IMG/VR virus record: IMGVR_UViG_3300035191_000049
Source of the DNA: a virus
Reading direction: 5' to 3' (one strand)
DNA length: 18,800 bases
Of this stretch, positions 1 to 16,070 are shown piece after piece; the stretch's first letter is position 1, and every line of letters begins with the position of its first letter. Made by a program: the position numbers and the translations under genes. A model generated the notes under the pieces. It saw only the letters and a program-made list of their open reading frames with translations. It made no database searches and had not been told where the DNA came from.

Positions 1-323
1 CGCCATCCTCGCTAACCCGATAACCACGAGCAAACGCAGCACATACTGCACGGGCTCTTTTTGAACGATAACCTGAAGACACAGTTACACCCCTTTTGAA
101 AAAATGATTCCATCCGACAAATGGGCAAGAGATAGCACACGGCGCCCCGTTTCGGCCTCCGTACACCGCTCCTCCGAAGAGGGTTACGGCACTGGGAACG
201 CAGCCACCGCTTTCGTTGTGACCGCTGTCGCTGAGTGCCTGCCAGCGTCTTTTTACAGCAAGCAACATCGCTACCTTAGGACCGTTAGTTGATGTAATCC
301 CTCTGGCATTCGGATCGAATCGG

Positions 324-396
324 TCGGAGTGACTGGACTTGAACCAGCAACCTCCAGCTCCCAAAGCTGGCGCGCTACCACTTGCGCAACACCCCG
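324..396 (-). tRNA. tRNA-Pro (anticodon TGG)
   Basis: Hand-folded cloverleaf on the minus strand. Acceptor CGGGGTG/CACTCCG with one G-U pair. D-arm GCGC-AAGTGGTA-GCGC. Anticodon stem CCAGC/GCTGG with loop TTTGGGA. T-arm GCTGG-TTCAAGT-CCAGT. No CCA is encoded. Confidence 0.75.
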
Positions 397-397
397 A

Positions 398-474
398 TGG
401 TCGGGCTGGTGGGAGTCGAACCCACACTACTCCGCGTCCCGAACGCGGCGGCTTACCATCAAGCCCTCAGCCCG
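398..474 (-). tRNA. tRNA-Pro (anticodon CGG), CCA encoded
   Basis: Acceptor CGGGCTG/CAGCCCG followed by a discriminator and CCA. D-arm GGCT-TGATGGTA-AGCC. Anticodon stem CCGCG/CGCGG with loop TTCGGGA. T-arm GTGGG-TTCGACT-CCCAC. The variable loop has 6 nt. Confidence 0.7.
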
Positions 475-538
475 TGTTTGGGGATGATTATTGAGTGCCG
501 TCCCCGAACACTTTTTCCACAAGCTGCCAACCCATGGG

Positions 539-641
539 TGGACCTGGCGGGAATCGAACCCGCGTCCACGCACAGTCCATTCGTAGGCTCTACGTGCGTA
601 GCCCTGCTTCAATACGACCGGTAGACCAGCAAGGCAGGTCG
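539..641 (-). tRNA. tRNA-like element, atypical (about 103 nt): canonical T-arm and 6/7-bp acceptor pairing but an unresolved, over-long body
   Basis: A perfect T-arm (GCGGG-TTCGATT-CCCGC) sits at 547-563 next to the acceptor 3' strand at 540-546. The only complementary 5' acceptor strand lies at 635-641, with a C-C mismatch at 1-72. The roughly 70 nt in between contain several hairpins (CGTAG/CTACG and CCTGC/GCAGG) but no clean D-arm or anticodon-arm solution. Confidence 0.3.
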
Positions 642-949
642 TACCCGGAAGATGTCCACTCTCTATCTCGTCAGCCCCGAGCGAGCGGAGACTTGAAAGC
701 TGACCAGCCACTAAATGACGTCCCATCCCGAGTCGCGGCACCTCAGGTGGAACGGAAGCTTACGCCGCCCTCGCGAGCGGTGCTTCATGGTAGTTATCGG
801 TGTTGACAACTGATTTTTTGCCTCCCGTTTTGACGGGCAAGGAGACATCTCCGGCACGCTCCTACGTACTTCATGTACCTGTCGAAACCAAATCAGGCCC
901 ATGCGGGCCACCCCTGCGTCCTCCTTGCGAAGGATAGCTGGGAGCCCTA

Positions 950-1036
950 CGGCAGAGGGGAGAATCGAACTCCATCCCTTTTACAGGACCATCCGATTAG
1001 CAGTCGGCGACGGGTCCATACCCGCTTCTCTCTGCC
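950..1036 (-). tRNA. tRNA-Ser (anticodon GCT), type II with long variable arm
   Basis: Acceptor GGCAGAG/CTCTGCC pairs 7/7. T-arm GGAG-TTCGATT-CTCC. Anticodon stem CCGA/TCGG with loop CTGCTAA. Length is 87 nt with an extra arm. The D region (CGGG-TATGGA-CCCG) is not fully resolved. Confidence 0.6.
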
Positions 1037-1037
1037 A

Positions 1038-1127
1038 CGGAAGGAGGAGGACTTGAACCCCACCCGCCTCTTCAGCGAGCGCACTGTTTTCGAAACAGGC
1101 TCGTCAACCCTGGACGATTCCCCTTCC
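1038..1127 (-). tRNA. tRNA-Ser (anticodon CGA), type II
   Basis: Acceptor GGAAGGG/TCCTTCC with one G-U pair. T-arm with loop TTCAAGT. Anticodon stem CTGT/ACAG with loop TTCGAAA. D stem CGTC/GACG. Length is 90 nt. Confidence 0.55.
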
Positions 1128-1132
1128 AACAG

Positions 1133-1217
1133 CGGAAGCCGAGGGACTTGAACCCCACCCCTTTTGAGAGCGCACCGCTTTCCAAGCGGGCATGGCACCC
1201 TGGCCATTTCAGCTTCC
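1133..1217 (-). tRNA. tRNA-Ser (anticodon GGA), type II
   Basis: Acceptor GGAAGCT/GGCTTCC with one G-U pair. The T-arm TTCAAGT motif is identical to the neighbouring Ser gene. Anticodon stem CCGC/GCGG with loop TTGGAAA. Length is 85 nt. Confidence 0.55.
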
Positions 1218-1381
1218 AGGCGCCCCTCCAATGAGCGCTCAGAGGAGGGACTTTCGCCACCGTTACCAGCGACAGGACAGGAACATGCTGCCCAAGGCCC
1301 ACGGCTTGCCGTGGGGGATGAAGCTAGGGGCCGAAATTCGGTCCCCTGCACCCGGTTGCCGAAGCTTCCGGGGGGATAGGG

Positions 1382-1463
1382 CGGAGGGTGTACGAGTCGA
1401 ACGCGCCCCGTCAAGGGTCATCGGTGTTCAAAACCGCGCCGGCACCACTGCCGCTCACCCTCC
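1382..1463 (-). tRNA. tRNA-Ser (anticodon TGA), type II
   Basis: Acceptor GGAGGGT/ACCCTCC pairs 7/7. D-arm CGG-CAGTGGTG-CCG. Anticodon stem CGGT/ACCG with loop TTTGAAC. Variable arm of 15 nt. T-arm GCGCG-TTCGACT-CGTAC. Confidence 0.65.
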
Positions 1464-1466
1464 ATG

Positions 1467-1538
1467 CGGTACCGACGGGAGTCGAACCCGCTTTCTCCTG
1501 GTCGACAGCCAGGTGTCCTACCGTTGGACCTCGGTACC
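1467..1538 (-). tRNA. tRNA-Asp (anticodon GTC)
   Basis: Acceptor GGTACCG/CGGTACC pairs 7/7. D-arm GTCC-AACGGTA-GGAC. Anticodon stem CCTGG/CCAGG with loop CTGTCGA. T-arm with loop TTCGACT. Confidence 0.75.
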
Positions 1539-1963
1539 TAGTGAACATAGCCTTTTCCAACCGGCTCGACCACCGACTGAAAAAGCTTTTCGATCGCGAC
1601 GTCGAGGTTGACGCCGTCTTTGGGACGAGCCATCGCCTTGGGTGAGTCGATTCGGATCGCACAGGTGTAGAGCTTCGCGAGCTGCATCCAGAAGACTGCC
1701 TCCCATGGAGGAACATCCTCGTCCAGATAGGGGACACGATGCCCCGCTGCGTAGGTCCGAATCTGACCCGAGACGATGCTGATGAAGGCGTGGTTTGGAA
1801 CCACTCCGAACGGAATCGACTCTTCCGTCCTGAGGACGCGAATCGCCCAGCGCTCTTCGTCACGGTCAAAGATGACGACACCGACGGGTGCCGCCGCGTT
1901 GTGCTCCGGCCTGTACATCTGACGAATGATGACGTAGCCGAAGTCCAGGTCTTCCAAAGCCAT
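1538..1963 (-). CDS. hypothetical protein (141 aa) embedded in the tRNA array
   Basis: ORF-track ORF 1538..2101, trimmed to the internal Met (MALEDLDFGYVIIRQMYRPEH...) because tRNA-Phe occupies 1975-2049. The composition looks protein-like. I recognised no family. Confidence 0.45.
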   Translation of the reverse strand: MALEDLDFGYVIIRQMYRPEHNAAAPVGVVIFDRDEERWAIRVLRTEESIPFGVVPNHAFISIVSGQIRTYAAGHRVPYLDEDVPPWEAVFWMQLAKLYTCAIRIDSPKAMARPKDGVNLDVAIEKLFQSVVEPVGKGYVH

Positions 1964-1974
1964 GTCATTCCCCC

Positions 1975-2049
1975 TGGTGGGCCAGATCGGAATCGAACCG
2001 ATATCTGCCGCATTTTCAGTGCGGGCTCTTACCAATTGAGTACTGACCC
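1975..2049 (-). tRNA. tRNA-Phe (anticodon GAA), CCA encoded
   Basis: Acceptor GGGTCAG/CTGGCCC with one G-U pair, followed by ACCA. D-arm CTCA-ATTGGTA-AGAG. Anticodon stem CCGCA/TGCGG with loop CTGAAAA, matching the canonical Phe loop. T-arm ATCGG-TTCGATT-CCGAT. Confidence 0.8.
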
Positions 2050-2138
2050 AAAAGAGTGGTGAATCACCTTGCTTCCTTCCGGACCTGGGGCAACTCACCA
2101 CCCCACAAAAAGGGGGTCAGCATGGCTGGCGACCATAC

Positions 2139-2213
2139 TGGCACCGGCAACAGGACTTGAACCTGTATTCACGGCTTCAAAGGCCGTTGTCCTACCGATT
2201 GGACGATACCGGT
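2139..2213 (-). tRNA. tRNA-Gln (anticodon TTG), CCA encoded
   Basis: Acceptor ACCGGTA/TGCCGGT with one U-G pair, followed by GCCA. U8 is present. D-arm GTCC-AATCGGTA-GGAC. Anticodon stem ACGGC/GCCGT with loop CTTTGAA. T-arm ACAGG-TTCAAGT-CCTGT, perfect. Confidence 0.8.
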
Positions 2214-2467
2214 ATTCCACCCCAGCTCACTCTCCCGATCGACGCCGTTTGGACCACCTGCTCCTCCAGACGCAAGATGGCCACCAAGCGCCTGAATTCA
2301 ACGCAGGTCGGGGCGGTACCTTCCCCGAATCTCACACGACTGGTGTGCGTCTTGTGTCGAGCGGCAACTGCTCCGTATCCTCGGTGAGCCGATCGGGCGT
2401 TTCCCAGAGACGACTGCAGTCGTTGATCTCAATCGACCTACTCCAGGTTGCCGAAACGGAGCTGAGG

Positions 2468-2543
2468 TGGCTGGGGTGGAGAGGCTCGAACTCCCGACAA
2501 CCTGGGCCAGAACCAGGTGCTCTTCCAACTGAGCTACACCCCA
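2468..2543 (-). tRNA. tRNA-Gln (anticodon CTG), CCA encoded
   Basis: Acceptor TGGGGTG/CACCCCA pairs 7/7, followed by GCCA. U8 is present. D-arm GCTC-AGTTGGAA-GAGC. Anticodon stem CCTGG/CCAGG with loop TTCTGGC. T-arm with loop TTCGAGC. Confidence 0.8.
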
Positions 2544-2550
2544 AGGGTAG

Positions 2551-2624
2551 CGGGCCAGGAGGGAATTGAACCCCCATCTCCAGGTTAACAGCCTGGCGCT
2601 AAAACCAGTATCAGCTACTGACCC
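2551..2624 (-). tRNA. tRNA-Asn (anticodon GTT)
   Basis: Acceptor GGGTCAG/CTGGCCC, the same acceptor as tRNA-Phe. U8 is present. D stem GCTG/TAGC. Anticodon stem CCAGG/CCTGG with loop CTGTTAA, matching the canonical Asn loop. T-arm with loop TTCAATT. Confidence 0.75.
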
Positions 2625-2629
2625 ACGAT

Positions 2630-2655
2630 CCGGCGCCCCAGCAAGGGGGCGCCGG
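2630..2655. other. perfect 10-bp GC hairpin (CCGGCGCCCC-AGCAAG-GGGGCGCCGG) between tRNA-Asn and tRNA-Lys
   Basis: Read directly from the sequence. No flanking U-run on either strand, so it is not a classical intrinsic terminator. It may be a processing or structural element within the tRNA transcript. Confidence 0.5.
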
Positions 2656-2721
2656 TAATTGATGCCTGATTGTCAAAGATCAACGTGGCCGTCACCACTG
2701 GACCGACGTTGTCCAATTTAG

Positions 2722-2796
2722 CCGGGGCGAGAGGATTCGAACCTCCGACCAAGTGATTAAGAGTCACCCACTCTAGCCAGACTGAGTTACGCCCCG
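2722..2796 (-). tRNA. tRNA-Lys (anticodon CTT)
   Basis: Acceptor CGGGGCG/CGCCCCG pairs 7/7. U8 is present. D-arm ACTC-AGTCTGGCTA-GAGT. Anticodon stem with a G-U closing pair and loop CTCTTAA. T-arm AGAGG-TTCGAAT-CCTCC. Confidence 0.75.
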
Positions 2797-2809
2797 AAAA
2801 CGTTATTTT

Positions 2810-2881
2810 GTGGGTCCACTGAGATTCGAACTCAGACCGCCTGATTAAAAGTCAGGAGCGCTACCCTTACGCTCATGGACC
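2810..2881 (-). tRNA. tRNA-Lys (anticodon TTT)
   Basis: Acceptor GGGTCCA/TGGACCC pairs 7/7. Anticodon stem CCTGA/TCAGG with loop CTTTTAA, matching the canonical Lys loop. T-arm CTGAG-TTCGAAT-CTCAG, perfect. The D region (GCG...CGC) is less clean. Confidence 0.75.
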
Positions 2882-2904
2882 CTGCTTTCTCCTCCAAAAA
2901 CGTC

Positions 2905-4381: not shown

Positions 4382-4618
4382 TCACCGCGAGGATAGACCC
4401 CAATCGTCCCTCACCCCCTCCACCTCTGCCCCGGTACATACCACCCTCGCCACAAAGACCATCACCATCCAGGTAAAAATGATCACTGCTAGCCACAGTA
4501 AAAATCCCAGAGTAGCGCTCCGGACCAACTCCAAAGCACCCTCCTTCTTTCTCTGTTGCATGATGCTCGTGTTTAGCACGTTCATCCTGCAGAAGTCATG
4601 TTCGCTGCGTTTAGCCAA
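4382..4618 (-). CDS. small membrane protein (one TM helix, LGFLLWLAVIIFTWMVMVFVA)
   Basis: ORF-track ORF with a hydrophobic core. The true start may be the internal Met at 4585. Confidence 0.35.
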   Translation of the reverse strand: MAKRSEHDFCRMNVLNTSIMQQRKKEGALELVRSATLGFLLWLAVIIFTWMVMVFVARVVCTGAEVEGVRDDWGLSSR

Positions 4619-5312
4619 CTCTCAGCTTTGCCACACCCCAAGCGTGGTCGTAAATGTGCATCCCCTTGCAACTCCAGATGATTTCACCGGCCGTGACGGT
4701 AACGTCATCAGTACTGATGCACTCGGCCATATACTCCTGCATGAGCCTCACAGCGGCGATATTCGCCGGGAAGCCGTTCCAGAGGTCATTCGACCTGATG
4801 TAGACGAAGAAGTGCAACTCGGGCTCTTCTCCCTCTCGGAGCCCTGATGGGGAGAAAATTCTGGTGTCAATTTGTCGCAGACAGGGCGGGTCATCCAGCG
4901 TTATGTCTTCAGGACGGGCGACAGCAATGCACTCCTGGTTGGAGCCGAAACCGTTTCTGCGGTAGCGGTTGATGATGGCCTCCATCTGGGGAGCCACTCG
5001 CTCGCCATAGGTGTACAGCTCATTTTCCTTGAGAGGCTGGTCTGTCATTAAATAGGGAAGGTACTCCTCTATATATTCCATGGTCGTTGGAGGAGGCACG
5101 TGTGAGAGGTGCTGAGGCATCTCAGGAACGAGGGGGCGCACGCCTGGGTGGGTGACCCGTATCTCCACCCAGTCAAGCTCCCAGCGCTTCTGGCCCTCAT
5201 AGGAACCATGATCAACGACCCACTGTCGCCCATGGGTAAGAACTGCATCGACGGTTTGAAACCAGGCATCGGGCAGGTCCCTGGCTTTGATGTGAATTGG
5301 CTTCAAGGACAT
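4611..5312 (-). CDS. thymidylate synthase-fold enzyme (ThyA/dUMP hydroxymethylase family), divergent
   Basis: Aligns by eye to ThyA core motifs: YTYGERV (compare pVYGkQWR), DDPPCL (catalytic Cys of LAPCH), FVYIRSNDLWNGFPANIAA (compare QLYQRSCDVFLGLPFNIAS, Asn retained), and IIWSCKGMHIYDHAW (compare fVWTGGDTHLYSNH). The ATG at 5312 overlaps the upstream stop as TGATG. Confidence 0.75.
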   Translation of the reverse strand: MSLKPIHIKARDLPDAWFQTVDAVLTHGRQWVVDHGSYEGQKRWELDWVEIRVTHPGVRPLVPEMPQHLSHVPPPTTMEYIEEYLPYLMTDQPLKENELYTYGERVAPQMEAIINRYRRNGFGSNQECIAVARPEDITLDDPPCLRQIDTRIFSPSGLREGEEPELHFFVYIRSNDLWNGFPANIAAVRLMQEYMAECISTDDVTVTAGEIIWSCKGMHIYDHAWGVAKLRVG

Positions 5313-5533
5313 CAACTTTTCTCCTGGGGTCCTACCCCAGCGAGTGGCATCACGTCGATGTACAACCCACGCCAGCCACCTTCAAGCATTTGTCGAACAA
5401 AATAAACGTCCTGAGGATTACCTATCCATACAAAAACCTTCTTGCCGCCGTAAGCCACTCGGACGTCCTTTATCCCATGCACCTTGGTGAGGTGCCCATA
5501 CACAGCTTCAACGATCCCGTCGAAGCGCCTCAT
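5312..5533 (-). CDS. hypothetical protein (73 aa)
   Basis: ORF-track ORF. It is coupled by ATGA and TGATG overlaps to both neighbouring genes. Confidence 0.45.
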   Translation of the reverse strand: MRRFDGIVEAVYGHLTKVHGIKDVRVAYGGKKVFVWIGNPQDVYFVRQMLEGGWRGLYIDVMPLAGVGPQEKS

Positions 5534-6171
5534 GCTTCAGAAACAATGTTTCCTTCGCTGAGCTTCATCACCAGATCGTACTCCGACAGGTCGTCAGGAG
5601 ACGCAATCGCCACTCCATCGCCAACTCGGACGATCGGTATCCACGAAGCACAGCAACCACAGACGATCCGGAGCTGGTCACGGTCGTCACCCTCGAAGTT
5701 GTCGTCCTTTAGACGGGCGAACGTAATGTTTCCAGAGAATCTCGGGTTGTCGTCGTTTCCACCCATTGCGTCGCCACAGACAGGACATGGGCTGTCGAGA
5801 ATGCCGTTTTTAATGAGGTCCGCGATCATCTCCCAGGCCCGACGATCCACGACTAGGTTTGTCGCGAAGAGTGTGTGAGAGTGGAGCCTGTGAGCCTCCT
5901 CGATGGTCATTACATCTGTGGAGAGCGGGGCAAGCTTTGCGAGCTGTTTATGCAACCAACAATGCTGCCCCAGCGCAAGGTCCAACTCACCAACCAAGCG
6001 ATAGGACATGCTTCTTTCACTGAGCTTTTGAAAACAATCAGCGCAGAAACCGATAGGCCTCTCATGATCCGCATAGACGACAGTGACTCTCTCCCAAGGA
6101 GGCTCTTTTTCGCAATCTCGCTGCAAACCACACCCAAGGCAACGCTCCAATATTCGGACAACTTTCGGCAT
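5530..6171 (-). CDS. Cys-rich (Zn-ribbon-like) hypothetical protein
   Basis: Multiple CxxC pairs (CLGCG, CADC, CPVCGD, CGCC). A strong AGGAGG Shine-Dalgarno site precedes it. Confidence 0.55.
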   Translation of the reverse strand: MPKVVRILERCLGCGLQRDCEKEPPWERVTVVYADHERPIGFCADCFQKLSERSMSYRLVGELDLALGQHCWLHKQLAKLAPLSTDVMTIEEAHRLHSHTLFATNLVVDRRAWEMIADLIKNGILDSPCPVCGDAMGGNDDNPRFSGNITFARLKDDNFEGDDRDQLRIVCGCCASWIPIVRVGDGVAIASPDDLSEYDLVMKLSEGNIVSEA

Positions 6172-6681
6172 CTAATCCTCCTGCTCGATCACCTGAGGAG
6201 CAGGAGGAAGAAGAGCCGTCGCGCTGTTGTTCAGGATCTCCGGGAGTCGAGGACCGATGGCCTCGGCGACGGTACGTCCATCGCTACCGACGAGCCATGG
6301 CAGGAAGAGCTGCTCGGGCGTGATGATGCCGTTCTCGATGGCCTCGAAGGCGCCCTTGAGAAAAATGCTCAGCACGCGGTGCTCTCGCCATCCTCGGGAC
6401 GCCTTGAGACGCTTGAACTTGTCCGGGAGCAAGGTCCCGTGCCGCCTGTGCTTGGCCTCCTCCTTGAGCTTTTCGTCATCAGGTAGGGCGACGTTCATGC
6501 GCGCGTGGTAGCTGACACCTTCATGCTGCCAGACGAACTCCAGCATAACCCTGTAGTTCTCGAAATTTTCCGACCACCGAATCCCGGTTACGCCCCACAA
6601 ACGGAGCAGGTCGGTGATTTCCTCCCTGGACTCACCTGGCGGGACTACCGTGTTCTCGGCATACTTCCTCTTCTTGGGCAT
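6172..6681 (-). CDS. hypothetical protein (169 aa), basic N-terminus
   Basis: ORF-track ORF with a GGAG Shine-Dalgarno site 6 nt upstream. It overlaps the 3' end of the radical SAM gene by about 50 nt. Confidence 0.5.
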   Translation of the reverse strand: MPKKRKYAENTVVPPGESREEITDLLRLWGVTGIRWSENFENYRVMLEFVWQHEGVSYHARMNVALPDDEKLKEEAKHRRHGTLLPDKFKRLKASRGWREHRVLSIFLKGAFEAIENGIITPEQLFLPWLVGSDGRTVAEAIGPRLPEILNNSATALLPPAPQVIEQED

Positions 6682-7420
6682 CTTTCTCTCCGATTGCTTT
6701 GAGATGAAGGGGGCTCAGGTTCGAGTTGAGCCCACAACGGTTGCACTTCATGGTTTTGAGATTGCGCTCAATGGTCAGGACGTCATCGTGGACAGTCCCG
6801 ATTGAGTGGCAGGTGTCGGCCTCGCCAGTAACGATGGTGCCGTCGACGTTGACAGCCGGGCTGCAATGTTTCCCCATCTGCTCGATCGCCCTGATGCCAC
6901 CAGCAAGGCCACCAGTGCTCCTCGTCGCGCTTCTCAGATTGAAGCACGTAGGACTGATACGGGTGGGCTTGATACGATTCTCTTTCGTCCTGCGACAGGG
7001 AAAAATAACGCGGAGGTTCGACTCGAAGCTGACTCCAGGGATACGTCGAAACTTTTCCCTGGCGAGGATCTTCGGATAGTAGCGCGGATCGTTCGTCACC
7101 TGGATGGGCAGCTCCAACTCGCGAGCGAGCTTCACTTTCTCCGGATCATCGATCCATGAGCCGTTCGTTGTGATGAGCGTGGCCTGGTGATAGACGTGAA
7201 ACTTGTCGAGTCGCCTCAAATGGCCTGCCATCTCTTCGAGCTTCGGATGCTCGAAGGGCTCTCCTCCGGTGAGTAGAATGACCTTGGCGGCGACACTCTG
7301 AGCAAAATCGACAGCGGCCTTAAACGTCTCCATAGTCATGTGCTCGCCATCTGGACCTGAGGAATCGACCATGCAGTGCTTGCACCCCATGGTGCAGCAA
7401 TTCGTGACACGGATCAGCAT
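6632..7420 (-). CDS. radical SAM enzyme, QueE/NrdG/PflA-like (paralog 1)
   Basis: N-terminal CTMGCKHC (Cx3Cx2C) and LTGGEPFEHP (GGEP SAM-binding motif). C-terminal extra Cys pairs, ending in CNRCGL. A GAGGGGG Shine-Dalgarno site is present. Parallel in sequence to the gene at 10111-10929. Confidence 0.75.
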   Translation of the reverse strand: MLIRVTNCCTMGCKHCMVDSSGPDGEHMTMETFKAAVDFAQSVAAKVILLTGGEPFEHPKLEEMAGHLRRLDKFHVYHQATLITTNGSWIDDPEKVKLARELELPIQVTNDPRYYPKILAREKFRRIPGVSFESNLRVIFPCRRTKENRIKPTRISPTCFNLRSATRSTGGLAGGIRAIEQMGKHCSPAVNVDGTIVTGEADTCHSIGTVHDDVLTIERNLKTMKCNRCGLNSNLSPLHLKAIGEKDAQEEEVCREHGSPAR

Positions 7421-8715
7421 TGCTCGACCCCCTCAGTAGGCTCCTCTTCTTCAGGAGGTAGTAGCGCTTTCCAGCGGTCTTCCTTGAATCGATGATCGGT
7501 GGCGTAAGGGATGTAACGCACCAGGCCTGCATCGATAAGCCTTTGAAGAATGCCGTTCATGTACTTTACGGCCTCGTTGTGATCGTCGGGCAGTGAGCCT
7601 ATCCGGTTGAGGATCGAGTAGATGTCGTAGTCGCGCCACATGCGCTTTCCGCCCAAATCCCTGAGCATGAGGCCGTGCAACTCTTTCATGAGGGGGGTAA
7701 GCGGCTGCTGTTCGAAGGTGGCGTCCCTGTGAATAAAGGTTGGGTACTGACAGTTGTTGATTTCGACGCAGACCGGGCACTCGTCTGCTGCCTCCCGGAT
7801 ATCCTCATCCGTCATCGATATCATCCTGTGACTGTCACGTGCCGCGAACAGGAGCTGGTTGAGCGTCCAGGGAAGGAGCTTTCCTTCTTCGTCTTTGTTC
7901 GTGAGGAGCAGCTCGCCGATCGTCTTGGCGAGAGCCTCCTTTTTGCCTGGCTCCTTCTCCTCGGGACCCCCCACCTCGATGTCCATTTCTTCCAATCCGT
8001 TGTCTGCCACGCAGTAGACGTGGTCAGAGGTGTTTCCGAGACGGCTCTTGACGACTACTTCAACAGACATAAGAGCCTCAAGCTGCTGCTCGACGAGTTC
8101 GATATCGATCTCTGGGTGTACCTCTTTGAGCCCGTGCTCGATCTCCTCCGCGGACCAAACCGCGCTCATGCCGTCCTTCTTGGTCCCTGCCTTGACCATG
8201 AGCTTGACGATGTTGACGGCAATCGGAGGCCACGTAGCCTCCGGAATATTGACGGACAGCTCTGGCTCGTTTTCGCCGTCATTAGACGAGTGGCAGCAAT
8301 TCTCATCCTCACCGATCGCGGCCACATCATTATCCGGCTCGGGCTTCTGTTCAGGTTTCTGGAACGGCCGCATGTGCATGTCGGGCTGCTCGAACTTCTT
8401 GTCTTCGTTAACGATTGCGTCGCGAAGATCGCAGGTCAGGCGAAATGCTTCTTCAGCGACCCATGTCGCCTCCTCCCCCATTTCTTCGTTCTTTGTCATC
8501 TGGACGTTCAGCGACCAGCCCGAGATGAGCTTGGCGACCATCATGAGGATGCGAGAATTCTCTTCGACGCGAGCCACCTCTTTCGCAGCGTTGACGATGT
8601 CCGAGACACTGCCCTCGGTAGAACGAAGATACTTCTTTCGCACCCTTCCAAGCTCCTCAGCGGCCTCCTTCATCTCTGCGATCAAGTTTCTGATTTTGGG
8701 TTCGTCGGACATCAT
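7414..8715 (-). CDS. hypothetical acidic protein (433 aa)
   Basis: ORF-track ORF with balanced composition. The antisense plus-strand ORF 7675..8901 is Leu/Arg-rich and was judged spurious. A GGGGTGA Shine-Dalgarno site is present. Confidence 0.55.
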   Translation of the reverse strand: MMSDEPKIRNLIAEMKEAAEELGRVRKKYLRSTEGSVSDIVNAAKEVARVEENSRILMMVAKLISGWSLNVQMTKNEEMGEEATWVAEEAFRLTCDLRDAIVNEDKKFEQPDMHMRPFQKPEQKPEPDNDVAAIGEDENCCHSSNDGENEPELSVNIPEATWPPIAVNIVKLMVKAGTKKDGMSAVWSAEEIEHGLKEVHPEIDIELVEQQLEALMSVEVVVKSRLGNTSDHVYCVADNGLEEMDIEVGGPEEKEPGKKEALAKTIGELLLTNKDEEGKLLPWTLNQLLFAARDSHRMISMTDEDIREAADECPVCVEINNCQYPTFIHRDATFEQQPLTPLMKELHGLMLRDLGGKRMWRDYDIYSILNRIGSLPDDHNEAVKYMNGILQRLIDAGLVRYIPYATDHRFKEDRWKALLPPEEEEPTEGVEQC

Positions 8716-9137
8716 TCACCCCGCTTGAGAGAAAAACCTTTCAGGACACCCACGTCATCGCCAGCGGCCTCACAGGTGACCTCTGTGACCTGGATCGAGC
8801 CGAGCAGCCATCGTCCTGGCATCCGAATCATGTGCCTCAGCGCGTCCAGCTTCTTGTTGAGAAATTCCTTCAGTGATCCGCCGACATCCTCCTGGGAGTA
8901 GCGAGCCACCTCTTCTTTATCTTGCCACCAGCCGGGGTCAGGCTCGTGGCCAGGGAGCTGCCAAACGTTCTCGTCTGGACGGAAGGCCAGACTGAAGAAA
9001 GCGTCGGGGTACATTTCCAACAGCTTGTGCGTTGGAGGTCCCCACTCTTTGTCGTCCTCAGGATGTTCTTCTTTGTAGACCTCAAGAAGAGGACGAATCT
9101 TTCCGCCTCGCCGAATACGCAAAAAGCCTGGCATCAT
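8712..9137 (-). CDS. hypothetical protein (141 aa)
   Basis: ORF 8712..9266 trimmed to the internal MMPGF start (9137). A GAGGA Shine-Dalgarno site lies 5 nt upstream. This avoids a 94-nt overlap with the upstream gene. Confidence 0.5.
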   Translation of the reverse strand: MMPGFLRIRRGGKIRPLLEVYKEEHPEDDKEWGPPTHKLLEMYPDAFFSLAFRPDENVWQLPGHEPDPGWWQDKEEVARYSQEDVGGSLKEFLNKKLDALRHMIRMPGRWLLGSIQVTEVTCEAAGDDVGVLKGFSLKRGE

Positions 9138-9171
9138 GTATTCCTCGGGAATCACAGCAACGACGAGAGCG

Positions 9172-9717
9172 TCACCCACTTGCGCCTCCCTGTGCCCACC
9201 GTTCGAAGTCGACCTCTCGCATGTGACCGCTCTTCTTAAAGATGGGAAAAAGACCCATGGGTCCATCGGGCGGAAACATCTCGGCGTCCTTGCCCATGAC
9301 GGGCTCGAAGTTGCAGCCCTGAAGGATCAGGGCCACAAACTCAGAACAGGAGACCTTGTTGTGATTGATGATGGGGTTGAACCACTCGACTCCCGTCACC
9401 TTGTAGAGCGCAAGGAGGATGCCGTTCAGGATGACGGCCTTGAAATCGTATTTCTTGTTAACGTAGTTACGCGCCTTTCGCATCCCCTCCTCGATATCCA
9501 GTCCGACGACCTCGAAGCACATCCAGTCGTCGTAGTTTTTTTTGAGAAGCTCGACTCGCTGGGGAATGACGCCGTCGGAAATAGCATGGGTGACCCACTG
9601 GCCTCCCCACACCGGATCCGTGTAACCCACCCAGGCGTGGTTCCAGTTACCTCCCGTCGCCTTGCGAATGAGCCAACCGAGAAAGTTGTTCGACCTGCTG
9701 AATCCAACGACAATCAT
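9172..9717 (-). CDS. permuted papain-fold enzyme (LRAT-like / NlpC-P60 superfamily), thiol hydrolase or acyltransferase
   Basis: A His-containing segment (NWNHAWVGY) lies N-terminal to a Cys box (SCSEFV, compare LRAT NCEHF). That is the permuted order. The start at 9717 forms an ATGA overlap with the SLOG gene's stop. Confidence 0.5.
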   Translation of the reverse strand: MIVVGFSRSNNFLGWLIRKATGGNWNHAWVGYTDPVWGGQWVTHAISDGVIPQRVELLKKNYDDWMCFEVVGLDIEEGMRKARNYVNKKYDFKAVILNGILLALYKVTGVEWFNPIINHNKVSCSEFVALILQGCNFEPVMGKDAEMFPPDGPMGLFPIFKKSGHMREVDFERWAQGGASG

Positions 9718-10190
9718 CTCAGCCTCTTGAAGATTTCCATGCACCGGAACTTTGCTGTCTCCTGAGCACCTGGAAATCCACTCTCACGGGGGCCGGCGAC
9801 GTTGATGACCTCAAAGTTGGTTAGCAGCGAGGCAAGGTGGTCGTAGCCATCGCTCTCGTTGGGAAACATGTGCAGCTCGTTGATGATGTCGAACCAGGGC
9901 TTTTCCAGTTTGCGGCACAAGCGCACCGTGAGAGCTGTTCCCGTCGAATCAGGGATGCTGGGACAGAGGATGAGAGTCGCGTCCGAGTCCCGGACGTTCC
10001 ACTCCGTGCGCTGAGGATAGTTCGACGTCGGCGCCTCCTGGAGCCTGCGGTATTTCTGGGGGATCTTGCCGTCCTCAGCTCGACGTCCCAGGGGACACCA
10101 GCCCCCTATCTCAATGCCCAGCTTCAGCGCCGCATCGAGACCACCTCGATCGACCCCTGTCTGACCGCCTGATATGACTTTTTTCAACAT
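9714..10190 (-). CDS. SLOG-superfamily protein ('putative molybdenum-carrier'/YpsA-like)
   Basis: The N-terminus ISGGQTGVDRGGLDAALKLGIEIGGWCPLGRRAEDG matches the signature start of the MoCo-carrier-like SLOG family. Downstream TEWNVRDSDATLIL follows. Confidence 0.6.
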   Translation of the reverse strand: MLKKVISGGQTGVDRGGLDAALKLGIEIGGWCPLGRRAEDGKIPQKYRRLQEAPTSNYPQRTEWNVRDSDATLILCPSIPDSTGTALTVRLCRKLEKPWFDIINELHMFPNESDGYDHLASLLTNFEVINVAGPRESGFPGAQETAKFRCMEIFKRLR

Positions 10191-10929
10191 CCTTCAACCC
10201 GCACTTTCCGCAGGGGAGTATTGTTCGTATTCTCTCCATCGCCGCCCTTGACGCCGATTTCCAGTCGGCGCGCAGCTCATCGATCGTCGTCACCTTCATG
10301 CAGCAATCAAGCGGCCCCATTCGGACCTCTCCCCCGGGATGCACGTGAATGCTGCACGTTCCGTCCAACGCTTCCCACATGCGAACGAACGACCGGAAGT
10401 TTGCATCGCCTGCTCCGCGCTTCAATAGTCTGTTCGCGTGCACGCAGTAGCGATTCTTTTCTCTGATTTTCGTTCCAGGAGGAGGTTTCCAGCCGCGCCT
10501 TTTCGCCTTCTCTCCGACGTATATTGAACTTAGATAGCTGATAACCTTCACGTTCTTCAACGCTCGCAGCTCATCAACGAAGTCGAGCTGCGGATAGAAC
10601 CGAAAGTCAGCGGTCACCTGGAATGCGACAGGCGCCAAGGACTTGATCTCTGCGAGGCGCCCTCTGAGCAGGGCGCCACTCGTCCCGACCCTCACGATAA
10701 AACCATGCTCCAGCGCAGCGTCACGAAGGGTCTTCACGACTTCCCAAAAAAGCGGATGTTCGAGCGGCTCGCCACCAGCTATGCCCAGGTCGTTCGAGCC
10801 GATCTTTTTGAAGACGCGAAGCGTTTCTTCGAGCGTCTCCTTGCTCATGTGCTCGGCACCGGGACCGGTCTTCGACACCAGGCAGTGATCACAATCGAGG
10901 GAGCACCGATATGTGAGCATGATGACCAT
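10111..10929 (-). CDS. radical SAM enzyme, QueE/NrdG/PflA-like (paralog 2)
   Basis: CSLDCDHC (Cx3Cx2C) and IAGGEPLEHP. C-terminal Cys pairs, ending in CGKCGL. Same architecture as the gene at 6632-7420. Confidence 0.75.
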   Translation of the reverse strand: MVIMLTYRCSLDCDHCLVSKTGPGAEHMSKETLEETLRVFKKIGSNDLGIAGGEPLEHPLFWEVVKTLRDAALEHGFIVRVGTSGALLRGRLAEIKSLAPVAFQVTADFRFYPQLDFVDELRALKNVKVISYLSSIYVGEKAKRRGWKPPPGTKIREKNRYCVHANRLLKRGAGDANFRSFVRMWEALDGTCSIHVHPGGEVRMGPLDCCMKVTTIDELRADWKSASRAAMERIRTILPCGKCGLKDVEKSHIRRSDRGRSRWSRCGAEAGH

Positions 10930-10935
10930 AAGCCA

Positions 10936-11268
10936 TCAACGACCCTTCTTAGTCTTTGTATTCGACTTGCCACCAGGCCATCGGTCGGCCTTCCCTCGTC
11001 CGACGTGAAAGCTCTCGCCATCCTTCGCGGCGTGCTTCACAAACTGAGCGAGTTCTGGGTCTTTTTCGAGTAACCTCATGTACTGACGCGCCGCTTCATC
11101 AATAGCCGCGTCAGCGCCATTCAATCCCGTGTAGCCATTCTGTAATGCGGCCACCCCTTCATGCGGCGAGCACCCCGGTGCTTTAATCCGGACATCGTAC
11201 TCGTCGACCAATCCCGCGTGCCCCCCCGTCACCGTCAGACGAACCTCCCCACTGAACCTCTTCGGCAT
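10936..11268 (-). CDS. hypothetical protein (110 aa)
   Basis: ORF-track ORF. No family recognised. The GLVDEYD segment is only vaguely dUTPase-like. Confidence 0.45.
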   Translation of the reverse strand: MPKRFSGEVRLTVTGGHAGLVDEYDVRIKAPGCSPHEGVAALQNGYTGLNGADAAIDEAARQYMRLLEKDPELAQFVKHAAKDGESFHVGRGKADRWPGGKSNTKTKKGR

Positions 11269-12488: not shown

Positions 12489-13532
12489 CTATAGACGCCT
12501 CATCTCGAACTGGAGCGAACGGATCTTTTGGAGCAGCCCATCAACGCCCTGGAATATTTTCCTAACGCGATCCCTTGTCGTCTTTGGCCAGTTGTCCTTG
12601 TCATCGATACTGCCGAGCACTTTATTGGCCTCAAATTCCAGCTCGTCAACGGCTTGGACGGCATCAAACACATCGAACATTTTTTTCTTCTCGGGCACGA
12701 CGGACATGACGACCACATCTTTGGGAATGCTGTAGATCGGGCCACGAAGGATGTAGGCAACCTTCATCCTCAGGACGTTCCCAGTGTATCCCTGGTCAGG
12801 AGGACCAAAGTAGGTCTCGTCAGCCGTTACACCGGCACCTGTCGTCCCTGGGTTCCACTCCTTCAGAACGAGAATGTCGCCCTTCTCGAAGTCACGATCG
12901 TTCTTGCGAACGTCGAAGGTCTTCTCACCCGACTTCATTGCGCGGAATTCGGCTGGCCACGTCTTCAACTCGTGCTCGACGGGCTCACGCTTTTCATGTC
13001 GGCGCCTGAACATCTCCAGCGTCTTGTCAGGAGCACCTACTAAAACATTTCGATCGCCCACTGGATAGACACGTTCTGGATCCGCGCCCATCAGCTCCAC
13101 CGTCTCCTCGACGGAGATTGAGTCGGGCACTGGATCGCTAAACGGAGGCGACGCAGGATAGTCACCGCCGAGCCGCTCCATGAAGCCTACATCCAGCGGG
13201 GCGTCATCACCTTCTTCTTCATGCTTCAAGAGAGCGTCGATCTCTTCCTTCTGTCGCTGCTTCTCGGCCTCGTAGTCGCGGTCCCACTGGGCCAGTTGCT
13301 CTTTCGTGGCAGGCATGTGCTCGCCAGGCTTTCGACAAGCCTCTGGGTCATCGACAAGATGCGGCTCTTGACACCAACCGGAATTCTTTTCTCGCTCGAC
13401 TAGCCCCTTAAAAACAGGGCATTCAGACGTTTCCTTGGTCACTTCTATCGATTCATATTTGCAGCCGTGGACGGGGCAGCAGTGTGTAATGTGGACCCCC
13501 CAGCCCTCCGGTAGTTCTTCTTCGGACATCAT
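12489..13532 (-). CDS. ASCH/DUF3850 (PUA-like) domain protein with Cys/His-rich N-terminus
   Basis: The C-terminal KTWPAEFRAMKSGEKTFDVRKNDRDFEKGDILVLKEW...GYTGNVLRMKVAYI matches the DUF3850/ASCH signature. The N-terminus HCCPVHGC...ECPVFKG is a metal-binding cluster. Confidence 0.6.
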   Translation of the reverse strand: MMSEEELPEGWGVHITHCCPVHGCKYESIEVTKETSECPVFKGLVEREKNSGWCQEPHLVDDPEACRKPGEHMPATKEQLAQWDRDYEAEKQRQKEEIDALLKHEEEGDDAPLDVGFMERLGGDYPASPPFSDPVPDSISVEETVELMGADPERVYPVGDRNVLVGAPDKTLEMFRRRHEKREPVEHELKTWPAEFRAMKSGEKTFDVRKNDRDFEKGDILVLKEWNPGTTGAGVTADETYFGPPDQGYTGNVLRMKVAYILRGPIYSIPKDVVVMSVVPEKKKMFDVFDAVQAVDELEFEANKVLGSIDDKDNWPKTTRDRVRKIFQGVDGLLQKIRSLQFEMRRL

Positions 13533-14137: not shown

Positions 14138-14453
14138 CGACTCCGGGGTCTCCATCGTGCTCATATCTCTCCTCGTCTAGCATCGCGTCGAGCATCTCGG
14201 CCTCGGCGTCCACCGCCTTGCGAGAGCTGCTGTCCGCGAGCTTCTTCCTGATCCCCCTGGCAATCGTCGCCGGGTTGCCGCCCATGTTGAAATGAAACCC
14301 ACTCGCACCCCATGAGACGTAAAGGCGCAGGCCGGGGATGAGACGGATCGAGGTCCCGATCCGTGGGTTCAGCATTCTTGCTGCCGCCTTGGTCGTCTTG
14401 GAGACAATTTTTTTATTGAGTGGCTTACTAGCTAGGGACTTCTGGGATGGCAT
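14025..14453 (-). CDS. possible hypothetical protein overlapping the PRTase 5' end
   Basis: The N-terminal 80 aa have a protein-like frame. The C-terminus is charged and low-complexity. It overlaps the PRTase start by at least 60 nt. The call is uncertain. Confidence 0.2.
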   Translation of the reverse strand: MPSQKSLASKPLNKKIVSKTTKAAARMLNPRIGTSIRLIPGLRLYVSWGASGFHFNMGGNPATIARGIRKKLADSSSRKAVDAEAEMLDAMLDEERYEHDGDPGVDARRDHEDPCLEASEGRDAEQRGLDGEGADARLGAKK

Positions 14454-15531
14454 TATAAAACTCCCCTCCCAGCATCTTCCCGGTTTTTTTCTTACCAAGA
14501 AGATACATCTCTTCGAGATGGGGACCCTTTCCGTTCTTGCGCCCAGGATAAACATCAGGTTCCCACTGGCCATCTGATGTCAATGAACCGAACCGAGACG
14601 TGACGATGTCCGGCCCATAAAAACCACGAGACTTGACAATGTGGCCGTACTCGGAGCCGGCGATCCAGGCACCCCACTGTTTGAAGAAAAAACTGACGTG
14701 CGACTTCTCGCACTGCTCTTTGATGTCGTGGACCCACCGGGGGTGCATGGGACGAGCACCAGGGCCACTCTCTCCGCCCACGATCACCCACTGGATGCCG
14801 CGGTCACGAGCTGCCCAATACTTGAAGTCGTCCCACTCTCCCGGATTGGCGATTGGGTATGTAGCGTCCTCTTCTACCTCGCCGATCCCTGGCATCCGTA
14901 GCTTGACCGGCCCGAGCAGCGGTTCGAGGGAGAGGAATCGAATTCGAGCCGGCACCCTGAGCAGGTGGGGGATGCGCAGGTCGGCTGCTTCCTGATTTTC
15001 GACGGAGACGCCGCACCAGATGTGAGGAGGGAGCCACGCCTTTCTGACACGAGCATCGCGCTCTTCGATCTCGTCGAGCCCAACACAGATCTCGACAGGA
15101 CCCTTGGGCTCGTAGGGCGTGACCCATTTCTGAACGTACTTCGCCATGCGCTCGGGGCGCTTGGTCAGGATGAGATAGACGTGATGGTCGGCCTCGAACA
15201 TCATTTCGAAGACCTTGTCGATCCACTCGTCTGGCACCGATTGATGGAACAGGTCGCCCATCAGGCAGATAGCGATGCGGCGAGAGCGGGTCCACCGATT
15301 CGGCTTCTCCAGCTCCTTCTCGAAGAGCTTGGCCTGACCGGTCCAATTGCCGTCTTTAGTCAGCCCGTGAAAGTGCTCTCCAGGCTTCGAAAAACGCGCT
15401 GCCTGACGTTCGGCCCAGCAGTTATCACAACCGCCGAGGTTGTTGTAGAATTCCTCCTCGTCTTCGTGTGAACAGCCCTTCACAGGGTTGAGCGTCGCGT
15501 CGACGTATTCTATTTTTGTCCGATCGCCCAT
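14428..15531 (-). CDS. phage Gp37/Gp68 family protein (DUF5131), three-Cys motif
   Basis: The N-terminus DRTKIEYVDATLNPVKGC...GGCDNCWAE matches the family signature (tkIeWt..wNp..GC...GCdnCYA). The start is set at the Met that overlaps the upstream stop as TGATG. Confidence 0.6.
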   Translation of the reverse strand: MGDRTKIEYVDATLNPVKGCSHEDEEEFYNNLGGCDNCWAERQAARFSKPGEHFHGLTKDGNWTGQAKLFEKELEKPNRWTRSRRIAICLMGDLFHQSVPDEWIDKVFEMMFEADHHVYLILTKRPERMAKYVQKWVTPYEPKGPVEICVGLDEIEERDARVRKAWLPPHIWCGVSVENQEAADLRIPHLLRVPARIRFLSLEPLLGPVKLRMPGIGEVEEDATYPIANPGEWDDFKYWAARDRGIQWVIVGGESGPGARPMHPRWVHDIKEQCEKSHVSFFFKQWGAWIAGSEYGHIVKSRGFYGPDIVTSRFGSLTSDGQWEPDVYPGRKNGKGPHLEEMYLLGKKKTGKMLGGEFYNAIPEVPS

Positions 15532-16070
15532 CAGGCTGCGTTCTTCTTCCTGGGCCAGAGCTTGTCCTTTGCCCACCGCACCAAACCGCCATGCTCCGGG
15601 GCGTAGGCTTCCATTTCCCCAGAAAGACGGTTCTTATGCATCAGAAAGCACCAGTTCGACCCGCTTTTTCCGATGGCATTACCCTTTAGGAGAAGGAATG
15701 TCTCGTGGACGAGTCCCTCCTTCACTACCTCCGCCCTCTGGACAGAAAGGATTGGAAGGGGGCACTGGTCGAAAAGGCGTTCCCGGCCAACGCCAGGGAA
15801 TACCTCGACGATGCCAGGCTTGCGGATGTAGGCGGTGCCCTCAAATCCATCTTCGAGAACAAACTCATACTGACCCGGACGTACCTTGGGCAGCTTCACG
15901 TGGTCGCCGCTATAGTCGATGCGTTTGGCCAGATAGAGAGCCTCAAAGACGTCGTCGGCGAAGCACACGACTGAACGATAGCGATCAAACGCCCTAAACA
16001 CTGAGACCATATCAGCAACACTGACCCTCATCTCAGGCAGAGGGTGCCTTCCGTCGTCAATGGTGACCAT
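15531..16070 (-). CDS. hypothetical protein (179 aa)
   Basis: ORF-track ORF. A GGAG Shine-Dalgarno site lies 7 nt upstream. Confidence 0.5.
   Translation of the reverse strand: MVTIDDGRHPLPEMRVSVADMVSVFRAFDRYRSVVCFADDVFEALYLAKRIDYSGDHVKLPKVRPGQYEFVLEDGFEGTAYIRKPGIVEVFPGVGRERLFDQCPLPILSVQRAEVVKEGLVHETFLLLKGNAIGKSGSNWCFLMHKNRLSGEMEAYAPEHGGLVRWAKDKLWPRKKNAA

Follow-up and report, generated by a model that had tools for sequence, protein, structure and literature searches.

A cpYpsA-family SLOG gene overlapping a YaeF/YiiX-like cysteine enzyme gene in a large phage: probably separable neighbours of a dense operon

When two phage genes of unrelated enzyme families overlap by a few nucleotides, do their products act as partners, or are they simply neighbours in a compact operon? 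This question is raised by 18,800 nucleotides of DNA from an uncultivated large phage (IMG/VR record IMGVR_UViG_3300035191_000049), hereafter called the window, whose positions are used as numbering throughout. All genes of the region lie on the minus strand. A gene of the circularly permuted YpsA (cpYpsA) SLOG family, gene 1, is joined there by an ATGA stop/start overlap to a gene encoding a permuted papain-fold cysteine enzyme, gene 2. In the original prediction, the two proteins were proposed to work together and to be functionally coupled to two radical S-adenosylmethionine (SAM) enzymes and to a phosphoribosyltransferase (PRTase) encoded nearby. Comparison with related phages favours another view, to which we give a probability of about 0.6. 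The two enzymes would act independently in host takeover or nucleotide metabolism, their genes being separable neighbours in one dense operon. In our best reading, the two genes do not make up an obligate pair, nor do they share a pathway with either radical SAM gene or with the PRTase gene.

The gene pair itself is as originally described. The TGA stop codon of gene 1 (9716-9714) overlaps the ATG of gene 2 (9717-9715), and on an identical phage contig the public gene annotation has the same pair, of 158 and 181 amino acids, with the same 4-nucleotide overlap. In the program-made list, the open reading frame of gene 2 covers 9172-9744; the ATG at 9717 yields the 181-residue protein. Homologues of the pair are 53-79% identical, with E values from 1e-61 to 1e-95. 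When both genes are compared with their orthologues in three related loci (L005, L007 and L011), the proportion of nonsynonymous differences (pN) is 0.23-0.31 and that of synonymous differences (pS) 0.60-0.90, synonymous sites being near saturation. For cpYpsA alone, the corresponding ranges are 0.27-0.31 and 0.68-0.90. Because the homologues are strong and pN is well below pS, both genes are, as judged from these comparisons, real, intact and under purifying selection, and not chance reading frames. In the window, their arrangement is co-transcriptional, with translational coupling.

The behaviour of the pair among relatives was followed in ten loci, the window included: L005, L007, L011, L174, L175, L176, L177, L178 and a 4317-bp contig carrying P0002 and P0165, where adjacency was inferred and which was counted as the tenth locus. 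Six of them have the two genes side by side (the window, L005, L007, L176, L178 and, by inference, the P0002/P0165 contig). Their spacing varies, from the ATGA overlap of the window and L005 to a spacer of 17 nucleotides in L007 and of 24 nucleotides in L176. In L011, L174 and L175, cpYpsA runs with a 4-8 nucleotide overlap directly into a gene for an acidic protein of about 400 residues, and no papain-like gene is present in the locus. L177 has a papain-like gene with neither cpYpsA nor the gene for a 110-residue protein upstream. Further away, locus L010 and Bacillus phage Kioshi each have a relative of the papain-like gene that is not accompanied by cpYpsA. What the window shares with L005, L007, L011, L174 and L175 is a backbone made of the 110-residue protein, cpYpsA, the acidic protein and a 169-residue protein. 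In this syntenic early block, the papain-like gene would be an accessory insertion between cpYpsA and the conserved gene for the acidic protein. In the window and its relatives, it lies in an early/replication block near genes for a single-stranded DNA-binding protein, an integrase and nucleotide-metabolism enzymes.

Beyond this clade, cpYpsA was considered at 160 independent loci (80 viral from IMG/VR and 80 bacterial from GTDB), within 6 kb on each side. The papain-like family was found at none of the 160 (cut-off E ≤ 0.01), and the other genes of the window did not recur there, one DUF5131 gene excepted. None of the 116 genes immediately beside viral cpYpsA genes encodes a papain-like domain; the families met most often there are DnaJ (three), thymidylate synthase (two) and PRTase (two), and NADAR and KptA/Tpt1 are represented once each. 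Bacterial cpYpsA genes are located in housekeeping-like, unconserved neighbourhoods. Since each gene occurs alone in relatives and the papain-like family is missing from all 160 other cpYpsA loci, the association appears clade-specific and separable, and lends no support to the proposal that the pair works together.

The surroundings of the pair lead to the same view. In the window's phage, the pair does lie between two radical SAM genes, rSAM1 and rSAM2. However, this position is not kept in the five related loci covered by a gene-by-gene context search (L005, L007, L011, L174 and L175). rSAM1 has no orthologue at this position in any of them, and orthologues of rSAM2, 49-51% identical, are found in L005, L011 and L174 and are missing from L007 and L175. 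Three more genes, encoding the PRTase, a ThyA-like protein and a methyltransferase, belong to the window's own phage only (0/5), while four of the five loci have the gene for DUF5131 and four that for deoxythymidine monophosphate (dTMP) kinase. rSAM1 is 26% identical to rSAM2-type genes; that this paralogue of rSAM2 is found only in the window's phage suggests, on sequence grounds, a recent insertion or duplication. A functional coupling of the pair to the radical SAM genes and the PRTase is therefore not borne out. The ATGA junction had also been taken as a sign of joint function. From the DUF5131 gene to that of the 169-residue protein, 11 of the 14 junctions overlap, by 1 to 80 nucleotides and in three cases by 4, so that an overlap of this kind is the norm here and no mark of a special partnership. 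No excess of promoter- or terminator-like sites was seen in the block. The pair thus sits in a dense head-to-tail phage operon, within an early/nucleotide-metabolism block.

Several considerations nevertheless weigh against regarding the two genes as mere neighbours. Within the clade, six of the seven loci with a papain-like gene have cpYpsA next to it, and the ATGA overlap is found in two lineages split by saturated synonymous divergence. Such persistence exceeds what random insertion would lead to expect and is compatible with some functional link. It should also be kept in mind that most comparison loci are short metagenomic contigs, where a gene missing at the site may be present elsewhere in the genome. 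Finally, we know of no biochemical activity for any cpYpsA or YiiX-family protein, so that the chemistry envisaged below is drawn from superfamily relatives only.

What can be said of each protein? The assignment of gene 1 to a SLOG, 'MoCo-carrier-like' family is confirmed: its product matches PF12694 with 159.7 bits, far over the cut-off of 26.2 bits (E 5.2e-47), the match spanning residues 5-147 and profile positions 1-138 of 145. This Pfam family, previously MoCo_carrier, is now named 'circularly permutated YpsA SLOG family'. In the Protein Data Bank (PDB), the structural-genomics entry 3IMK is matched at E 6e-27. All 24 columns that are invariant in an alignment with 37 homologues are kept in the window's protein. 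They fall in the motifs SGGQTGVD, GGWCPxGRRAEDG, RTxxN, GT and NxAGPRES; both the Gly-rich loop and the conserved Glu expected of such a protein are thus there. With its full-length match, invariant residues, size and single-domain architecture, the protein resembles the rest of the family and 3IMK, and differs in being phage-encoded. A profile search of the PDB also reached chains of DprA and ShosA, other SLOG members, at E of about 0.01. The DprA alignment passes through the Gly-rich loop, which pairs with SGxxxGxD of DprA, and through the GT motif. No LOG or MCP chain was retrieved by this search, and PF12694 was the sole Pfam match at E ≤ 0.1. LOG-type SLOG enzymes cleave N-glycosidic bonds. 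The SLOG Rossmannoid fold with its Gly-rich loop is common to cpYpsA, the LOG-type phosphoribohydrolases and ShosA, whereas cpYpsA has no LOG Pfam match.

With a cut-off of E ≤ 1e-10, the cpYpsA family comprises at least 7,994 clusters; it is mostly bacterial, with members in Planctomycetota, Nitrospirota, Acidobacteriota and Proteobacteria among others. The phage protein is 50-56% identical to housekeeping-like bacterial homologues, a similarity that suggests acquisition from a host. The few cultured phages that carry cpYpsA are the Maribacter phages Molly and Colly, IAS virus and Rctr197k, and the gene behaves as a portable, stand-alone one in very different phages. A search of the literature found no paper on the function of cpYpsA or PF12694, and the label 'molybdenum carrier' is historical. 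An apparently truncated cpYpsA gene in locus L001 was set aside as a gene-caller artefact, since over 1,900 bp its DNA shows 100% identity with that of the window.

Clustering of the neighbours at the 160 cpYpsA loci gave no strongly recurrent partner other than J-domain proteins. In three IMG/VR contigs (L058, L086 and L048), a J-domain (DnaJ-like) gene is co-directional with cpYpsA and overlaps its start; in seven Nitrospirales genomes (L094, L097, L101, L105, L114, L124 and L135) such a gene is a divergent neighbour of cpYpsA. A DnaJ gene is also found 4-5 kb away in L005 and L007.

The product of gene 2 has no Pfam match at E ≤ 0.1 and no NCBIfam match, and its close homologues number only 13 in an index of 5.8 billion proteins. 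When 1.84 billion cluster representatives were searched with a profile, 358 relatives were obtained, of about 170-180 residues. Over 91 of these, the sole invariant columns are His27 and Cys124, Tyr90-Asp91, Ser125 and Glu126 being nearly so; the conservation of His and Cys on which the original assignment depended is thus verified. Against the PDB, the family profile matched BcPPNE (3KW0, E 1.3e-9) and YiiX (2IF6, E 1.6e-4), an 'SH' of these structures being paired with His27 and 'CSEF' with Cys124. His27 and Cys124 align with His49 and Cys154 of BcPPNE and with His49 and Cys128 of YiiX, in the order of a circular permutation where His is N-terminal to Cys. With the same profile, no LRAT or PLAAT chain was retrieved at E ≤ 10. 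PF05708 (Peptidase_C92) was matched by 21 of the 91 relatives at E ≤ 0.1, the best value being 3.3e-6, and the LRAT family by none. In view of the matches to 3KW0 and YiiX, of the relatives touching PF05708 and of the lack of LRAT matches, gene 2 encodes a YaeF/YiiX-like (C92-like), cytoplasmic, permuted enzyme of the NlpC/P60 superfamily. The permuted papain fold originally recognised is therefore retained, the nearest family being YaeF/YiiX and not LRAT. The window's protein itself stays below the PF05708 threshold and is placed by its sequence in a divergent sister group, not among the members that Pfam defines.

An AlphaFold model of the gene 2 protein (pLDDT 80) has the permuted papain fold. 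With this model, Foldseek retrieved 3KW0 and 2IF6 at E of about 3e-4, followed by TseH (7.0), the MARTX RID acyltransferase (6.5) and PLAAT4 of the LRAT family (5.3). The catalytic residues of the reference structures, C154/H49/E64/Y127 in BcPPNE and C128/H49/E64/Y115 in YiiX (PMC3142127), map to a predicted tetrad Cys124/His27/His44/Tyr90, the latter in a YD motif. The third residue is His44 where the family usually has Glu, and this His is invariant in the close subfamily. A hydrophobic helix-loop (residues 92-122), modelled with low confidence, is extra with respect to YaeF/YiiX. Hence, as compared with YaeF/YiiX (MEROPS C92, PF05708), fold and family-profile similarity are shared, whereas the score under the Pfam threshold, His44 in place of Glu, the additional helix-loop and the membership of a phage family are distinctive. 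With LRAT/PLAAT (HRASLS) proteins, the enzyme has in common the permuted NlpC/P60 superfamily, and a thioester acyl-enzyme chemistry is plausible. PLAAT enzymes have the catalytic order His...His...Cys with His as the third residue, and the same order is predicted for gene 2.

Of the 91 relatives, 86 belong to phrog_1128 (PHROGs v4). The region that they match, profile positions ~27-143 of 381, corresponds to the YiiX-like papain-fold domain. The label of this group, 'enoyl-CoA hydratase/carnithine racemase-like', appears not to fit the domain of gene 2. A cytosine/adenosine deaminase (3OCQ, phmmer E 0.034) was also considered and dropped, since the PCxxC zinc motif is absent from the gene 2 protein and the fold searches indicate a papain fold. 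A scan of IMG/VR with an alignment of the close subfamily yielded no relatives, and longer relatives of gene 2 (P0065, P0127, P0137 and others) gave nothing informative on domain fusions.

By analogy with the superfamily, cpYpsA would use its Gly-rich loop to bind a ribosyl or phosphoribosyl nucleotide. It would probably hydrolyse or otherwise process this nucleotide, possibly by N-glycosidic cleavage as LOG enzymes do. In this way, the protein may, in the infected cell, shift the nucleotide pools of the host or signals derived from nucleotides. Another possibility is that it senses or degrades signals derived from ADP-ribose, as predicted for viral domains of the YpsA clade (PMC9503650). In the papain-like enzyme, residue roles mapped from BcPPNE and YiiX would make Cys124 the nucleophile, His27 the general base, His44 the orienting residue and Tyr90 a contributor to the oxyanion site. 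Cys124 and His27 would form an acyl-thioester intermediate, resolved by hydrolysis or by acyl transfer. The structure of YiiX contained a fatty acid and the PPNEs have hydrophobic S1 pockets (PMC3142127), and for this reason the acyl group is probably hydrophobic; the substrate may be an amide, an ester or a thioester. With BcPPNE, the co-purified ligand was lysine.

Could the two enzymes nevertheless have been selected as a unit? In the model of the original prediction, they would form a dedicated module and, together with the PRTase, DUF5131 and the radical SAM enzymes, produce a modified nucleotide or DNA base. The SLOG protein would release or exchange the base, and on the same nucleotide-linked substrate an acyl or aminoacyl group would be transferred or removed by the thiol enzyme. 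A SLOG enzyme that frees a base might run counter to the PRTase step, an idea for which the two PRTases among the 116 viral neighbours of cpYpsA offer a faint contextual hint. The ATGA coupling in two loci and the adjacency in six can be read in this sense. The same holds for a block containing dTMP kinase, ThyA-like, PRTase, methyltransferase, DUF3850/ASCH, DUF5131 and two radical SAM genes, for the two PRTases and two thymidylate synthases among the viral neighbours of cpYpsA, and for the contextual link of the YpsA clade with PRTases (PMC6459960). However, four of these context genes are peculiar to the window's phage, rSAM2 is missing from two relatives, each gene of the pair is found without the other, none of the 160 cpYpsA loci outside the clade has a papain-like gene, and overlapping junctions are the rule in the block. 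A dedicated module is on balance quite unlikely. It is tempting to imagine a narrower version, limited to the clade, where the thiol enzyme deacylates an acylated or aminoacylated nucleotide, or transfers its acyl group, and the SLOG enzyme cleaves the N-glycosidic bond. Candidate substrates would be an acyl- or aminoacyl-(ADP-)ribosyl compound, a coenzyme A-type thioester or a base-linked amide. This two-step scheme is improbable. If true, it could serve to eliminate an immune signal of the host, or to supply DNA-base modification together with DUF5131 and a radical SAM enzyme, and it would provide a first substrate for both orphan families. A toxin-antitoxin pair was rejected. ShosA is a DprA-like SLOG antitoxin, the partner of the PRTase toxin ShosT. 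In the window, a PRTase gene is 3.3 kb from cpYpsA; however, it is not conserved with cpYpsA, the two genes are unlinked in relatives, and neither protein has a PADLOC match to ShosA or ShosT.

The biological role of the enzymes is a distinct question, and counter-defence is compatible with either gene arrangement. cpYpsA would bind, or break down, immune signals that derive from ADP-ribose or consist of other nucleotides, and the papain-like enzyme would independently strip an acyl or ubiquitin-like modification from the host or acylate a host protein. Such a role for cpYpsA agrees with the prediction of Iyer, Burroughs and Aravind that SLOG domains of viruses, which for the most part fall in the YpsA-like clade, are directed at 1'-ribosyl N-glycosidic bonds in signals resembling cyclic ADP-ribose (PMC9503650). 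It also agrees with the single occurrences of NADAR and KptA/Tpt1 beside viral cpYpsA genes and with the portability of the gene. For gene 2, the structural relatives include the toxin acyltransferase RID and the type VI secretion system effector TseH. Against this, neither protein has a PADLOC match, and the housekeeping-like, unconserved surroundings of bacterial cpYpsA fit a metabolic enzyme better than an immune component. Counter-defence is thus possible, though we would not expect it. The papain-like protein might also be a peptidoglycan hydrolase used for entry or lysis, like canonical NlpC/P60 enzymes, and be foreign to nucleotide chemistry. Kioshi gp105, annotated 'cysteine peptidase', is encoded in a tail/baseplate module, and P0016 of L010 is located among very large open reading frames; PHROG annotation of the neighbours of P0016 gave nothing, and the contigs of P0017 and P0023 proved too short for a view of their context. 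This idea seems very improbable, because the window and its relatives carry the gene in the early/replication block and not in a structural or lysis module, the protein has, from its sequence, neither signal peptide nor cell-wall-binding domain, and the hydrophobic S1 pockets of YiiX and BcPPNE were deemed unsuitable for peptides (PMC3142127).

The cpYpsA and YiiX-like families each comprise thousands of bacterial clusters with no experimentally established substrate, and phage context can sometimes reveal function. In the present case, both genes are new members of families already known, genomic context is a weak functional clue, and the main value of the locus is to correct the record. The appropriate annotation for gene 2 is YaeF/YiiX-like (C92-like) thiol hydrolase/acyltransferase of phrog_1128, not LRAT-like, and the pair should not be counted with the radical SAM and PRTase genes as one pathway. 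With the two genes taken as separable neighbours, the more persistent unit in these phages is the four-gene backbone that surrounds them.

Table 1. Coordinates of the gene pair, of its motifs and of other features discussed. Positions are those of the window unless a residue range or another contig is indicated.
Feature	Position	Strand	Remarks
cpYpsA-family SLOG gene (gene 1)	9714..10190	-	158 aa; ATG at 10190
YaeF/YiiX-like permuted papain-fold cysteine enzyme gene (gene 2)	9172..9717	-	181 aa; member of phrog_1128
ATGA stop/start overlap, gene 1/gene 2	9714..9717	-	plus strand reads TCAT
AAGAGG Shine-Dalgarno-like motif	9723..9728	-	5 nt upstream of gene 2 ATG, within cpYpsA 3' end
Gene 2 His27 codon (predicted catalytic)	9637-9639	-	
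Gene 2 His44 codon (predicted catalytic)	9586-9588	-	
Gene 2 Tyr90 codon (predicted catalytic)	9448-9450	-	
Gene 2 Cys124 codon (predicted catalytic)	9346-9348	-	motif SCSEF
cpYpsA motif SGGQTGVD	residues 7-14		Gly-rich loop
cpYpsA motif GGWCPLGRRAEDG	residues 29-41		
cpYpsA motif RTEWNVRDSD	residues 61-70		
cpYpsA motif GT	residues 84-85		G84-T85
cpYpsA motif NVAGPRES	residues 130-137		conserved Glu136
Radical SAM gene 1 (rSAM1)	10111..10929	-	272 aa; PF04055 E 4.9e-12
110-aa conserved protein	10936..11268	-	directly upstream of cpYpsA in L005, L007, L011
155-aa protein	8712..9179	-	overlaps gene 2 stop by 8 nt; homologue only in L005
Divergent acidic protein, ~400 aa	7414..8715	-	433 aa here; 24-30% identical in L005, L007, L011, L174, L175
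Radical SAM gene 2 (rSAM2)	6632..7420	-	262 aa; PF04055 E 1.3e-13
169-aa protein	6172..6681	-	62-70% identity in L005, L007, L011, L174, L175; most conserved gene of the block
DUF5131 (phage Gp37/Gp68) protein	14428-15576	-	
Protein with DUF3850/ASCH-like domain	12489-13532	-	347 aa; domain at residues 187-277; Cys-rich N-terminal region
Short ThyA-like protein	4611-5315	-	234 aa; matches only C-terminal half of thymidylate synthase
Ten tRNA genes (array)	322-2882	-	Pro x2, Ser, Asp, Phe, Gln x2, Asn, Lys x2
Phage-encoded tmRNA gene	537-900	-	tag peptide VNTDNYHEAPLARAA
J-domain gene / cpYpsA in L058	5142-5966 / 5938-6477		
J-domain gene / cpYpsA in L086	5063-5983 / 5980-6528		
J-domain gene / cpYpsA in L048	5003-5983 / 5980-6519		

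The other genes of the block are listed in Table 1. The 3' end of rSAM1 overlaps the 5' end of cpYpsA by 80 nucleotides (10111-10190) in a different frame, and both radical SAM proteins have only weak N-terminal matches, of viperin, MoaA and ArsS type. Homologues of the 110-residue protein are 39-54% identical in L005, L007, L011, L174 and L175 and 60% identical in L176. The acidic protein has no Pfam, PDB or PADLOC match. The model of the 169-residue protein is confident (pLDDT 87), yet no convincing structural neighbour was found. A DUF7694 protein is also encoded in the block, and the PRTase resembles orotate phosphoribosyltransferase (TIGR00336, E 3e-23, under the cut-off).

The window is DNA of an uncultivated large phage, since a protein identical to the window's occurs on a 182.8-kb contig, the longest of those where it was found, and since the window carries ten tRNA genes, a transfer-messenger RNA (tmRNA) gene and the context genes described above. 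Neither the window (blastn) nor gene 2 (tblastn) had a match among GenBank phages. The DUF3850/ASCH and ThyA-like proteins together may have functions in nucleotide or base modification. Lastly, the DUF5131 protein has a strong match (E 1e-61) to PDC-M41B and PDC-M30B, two candidate-defence models of PADLOC, and a weak one to 'radical SAM mobile pair protein A'.

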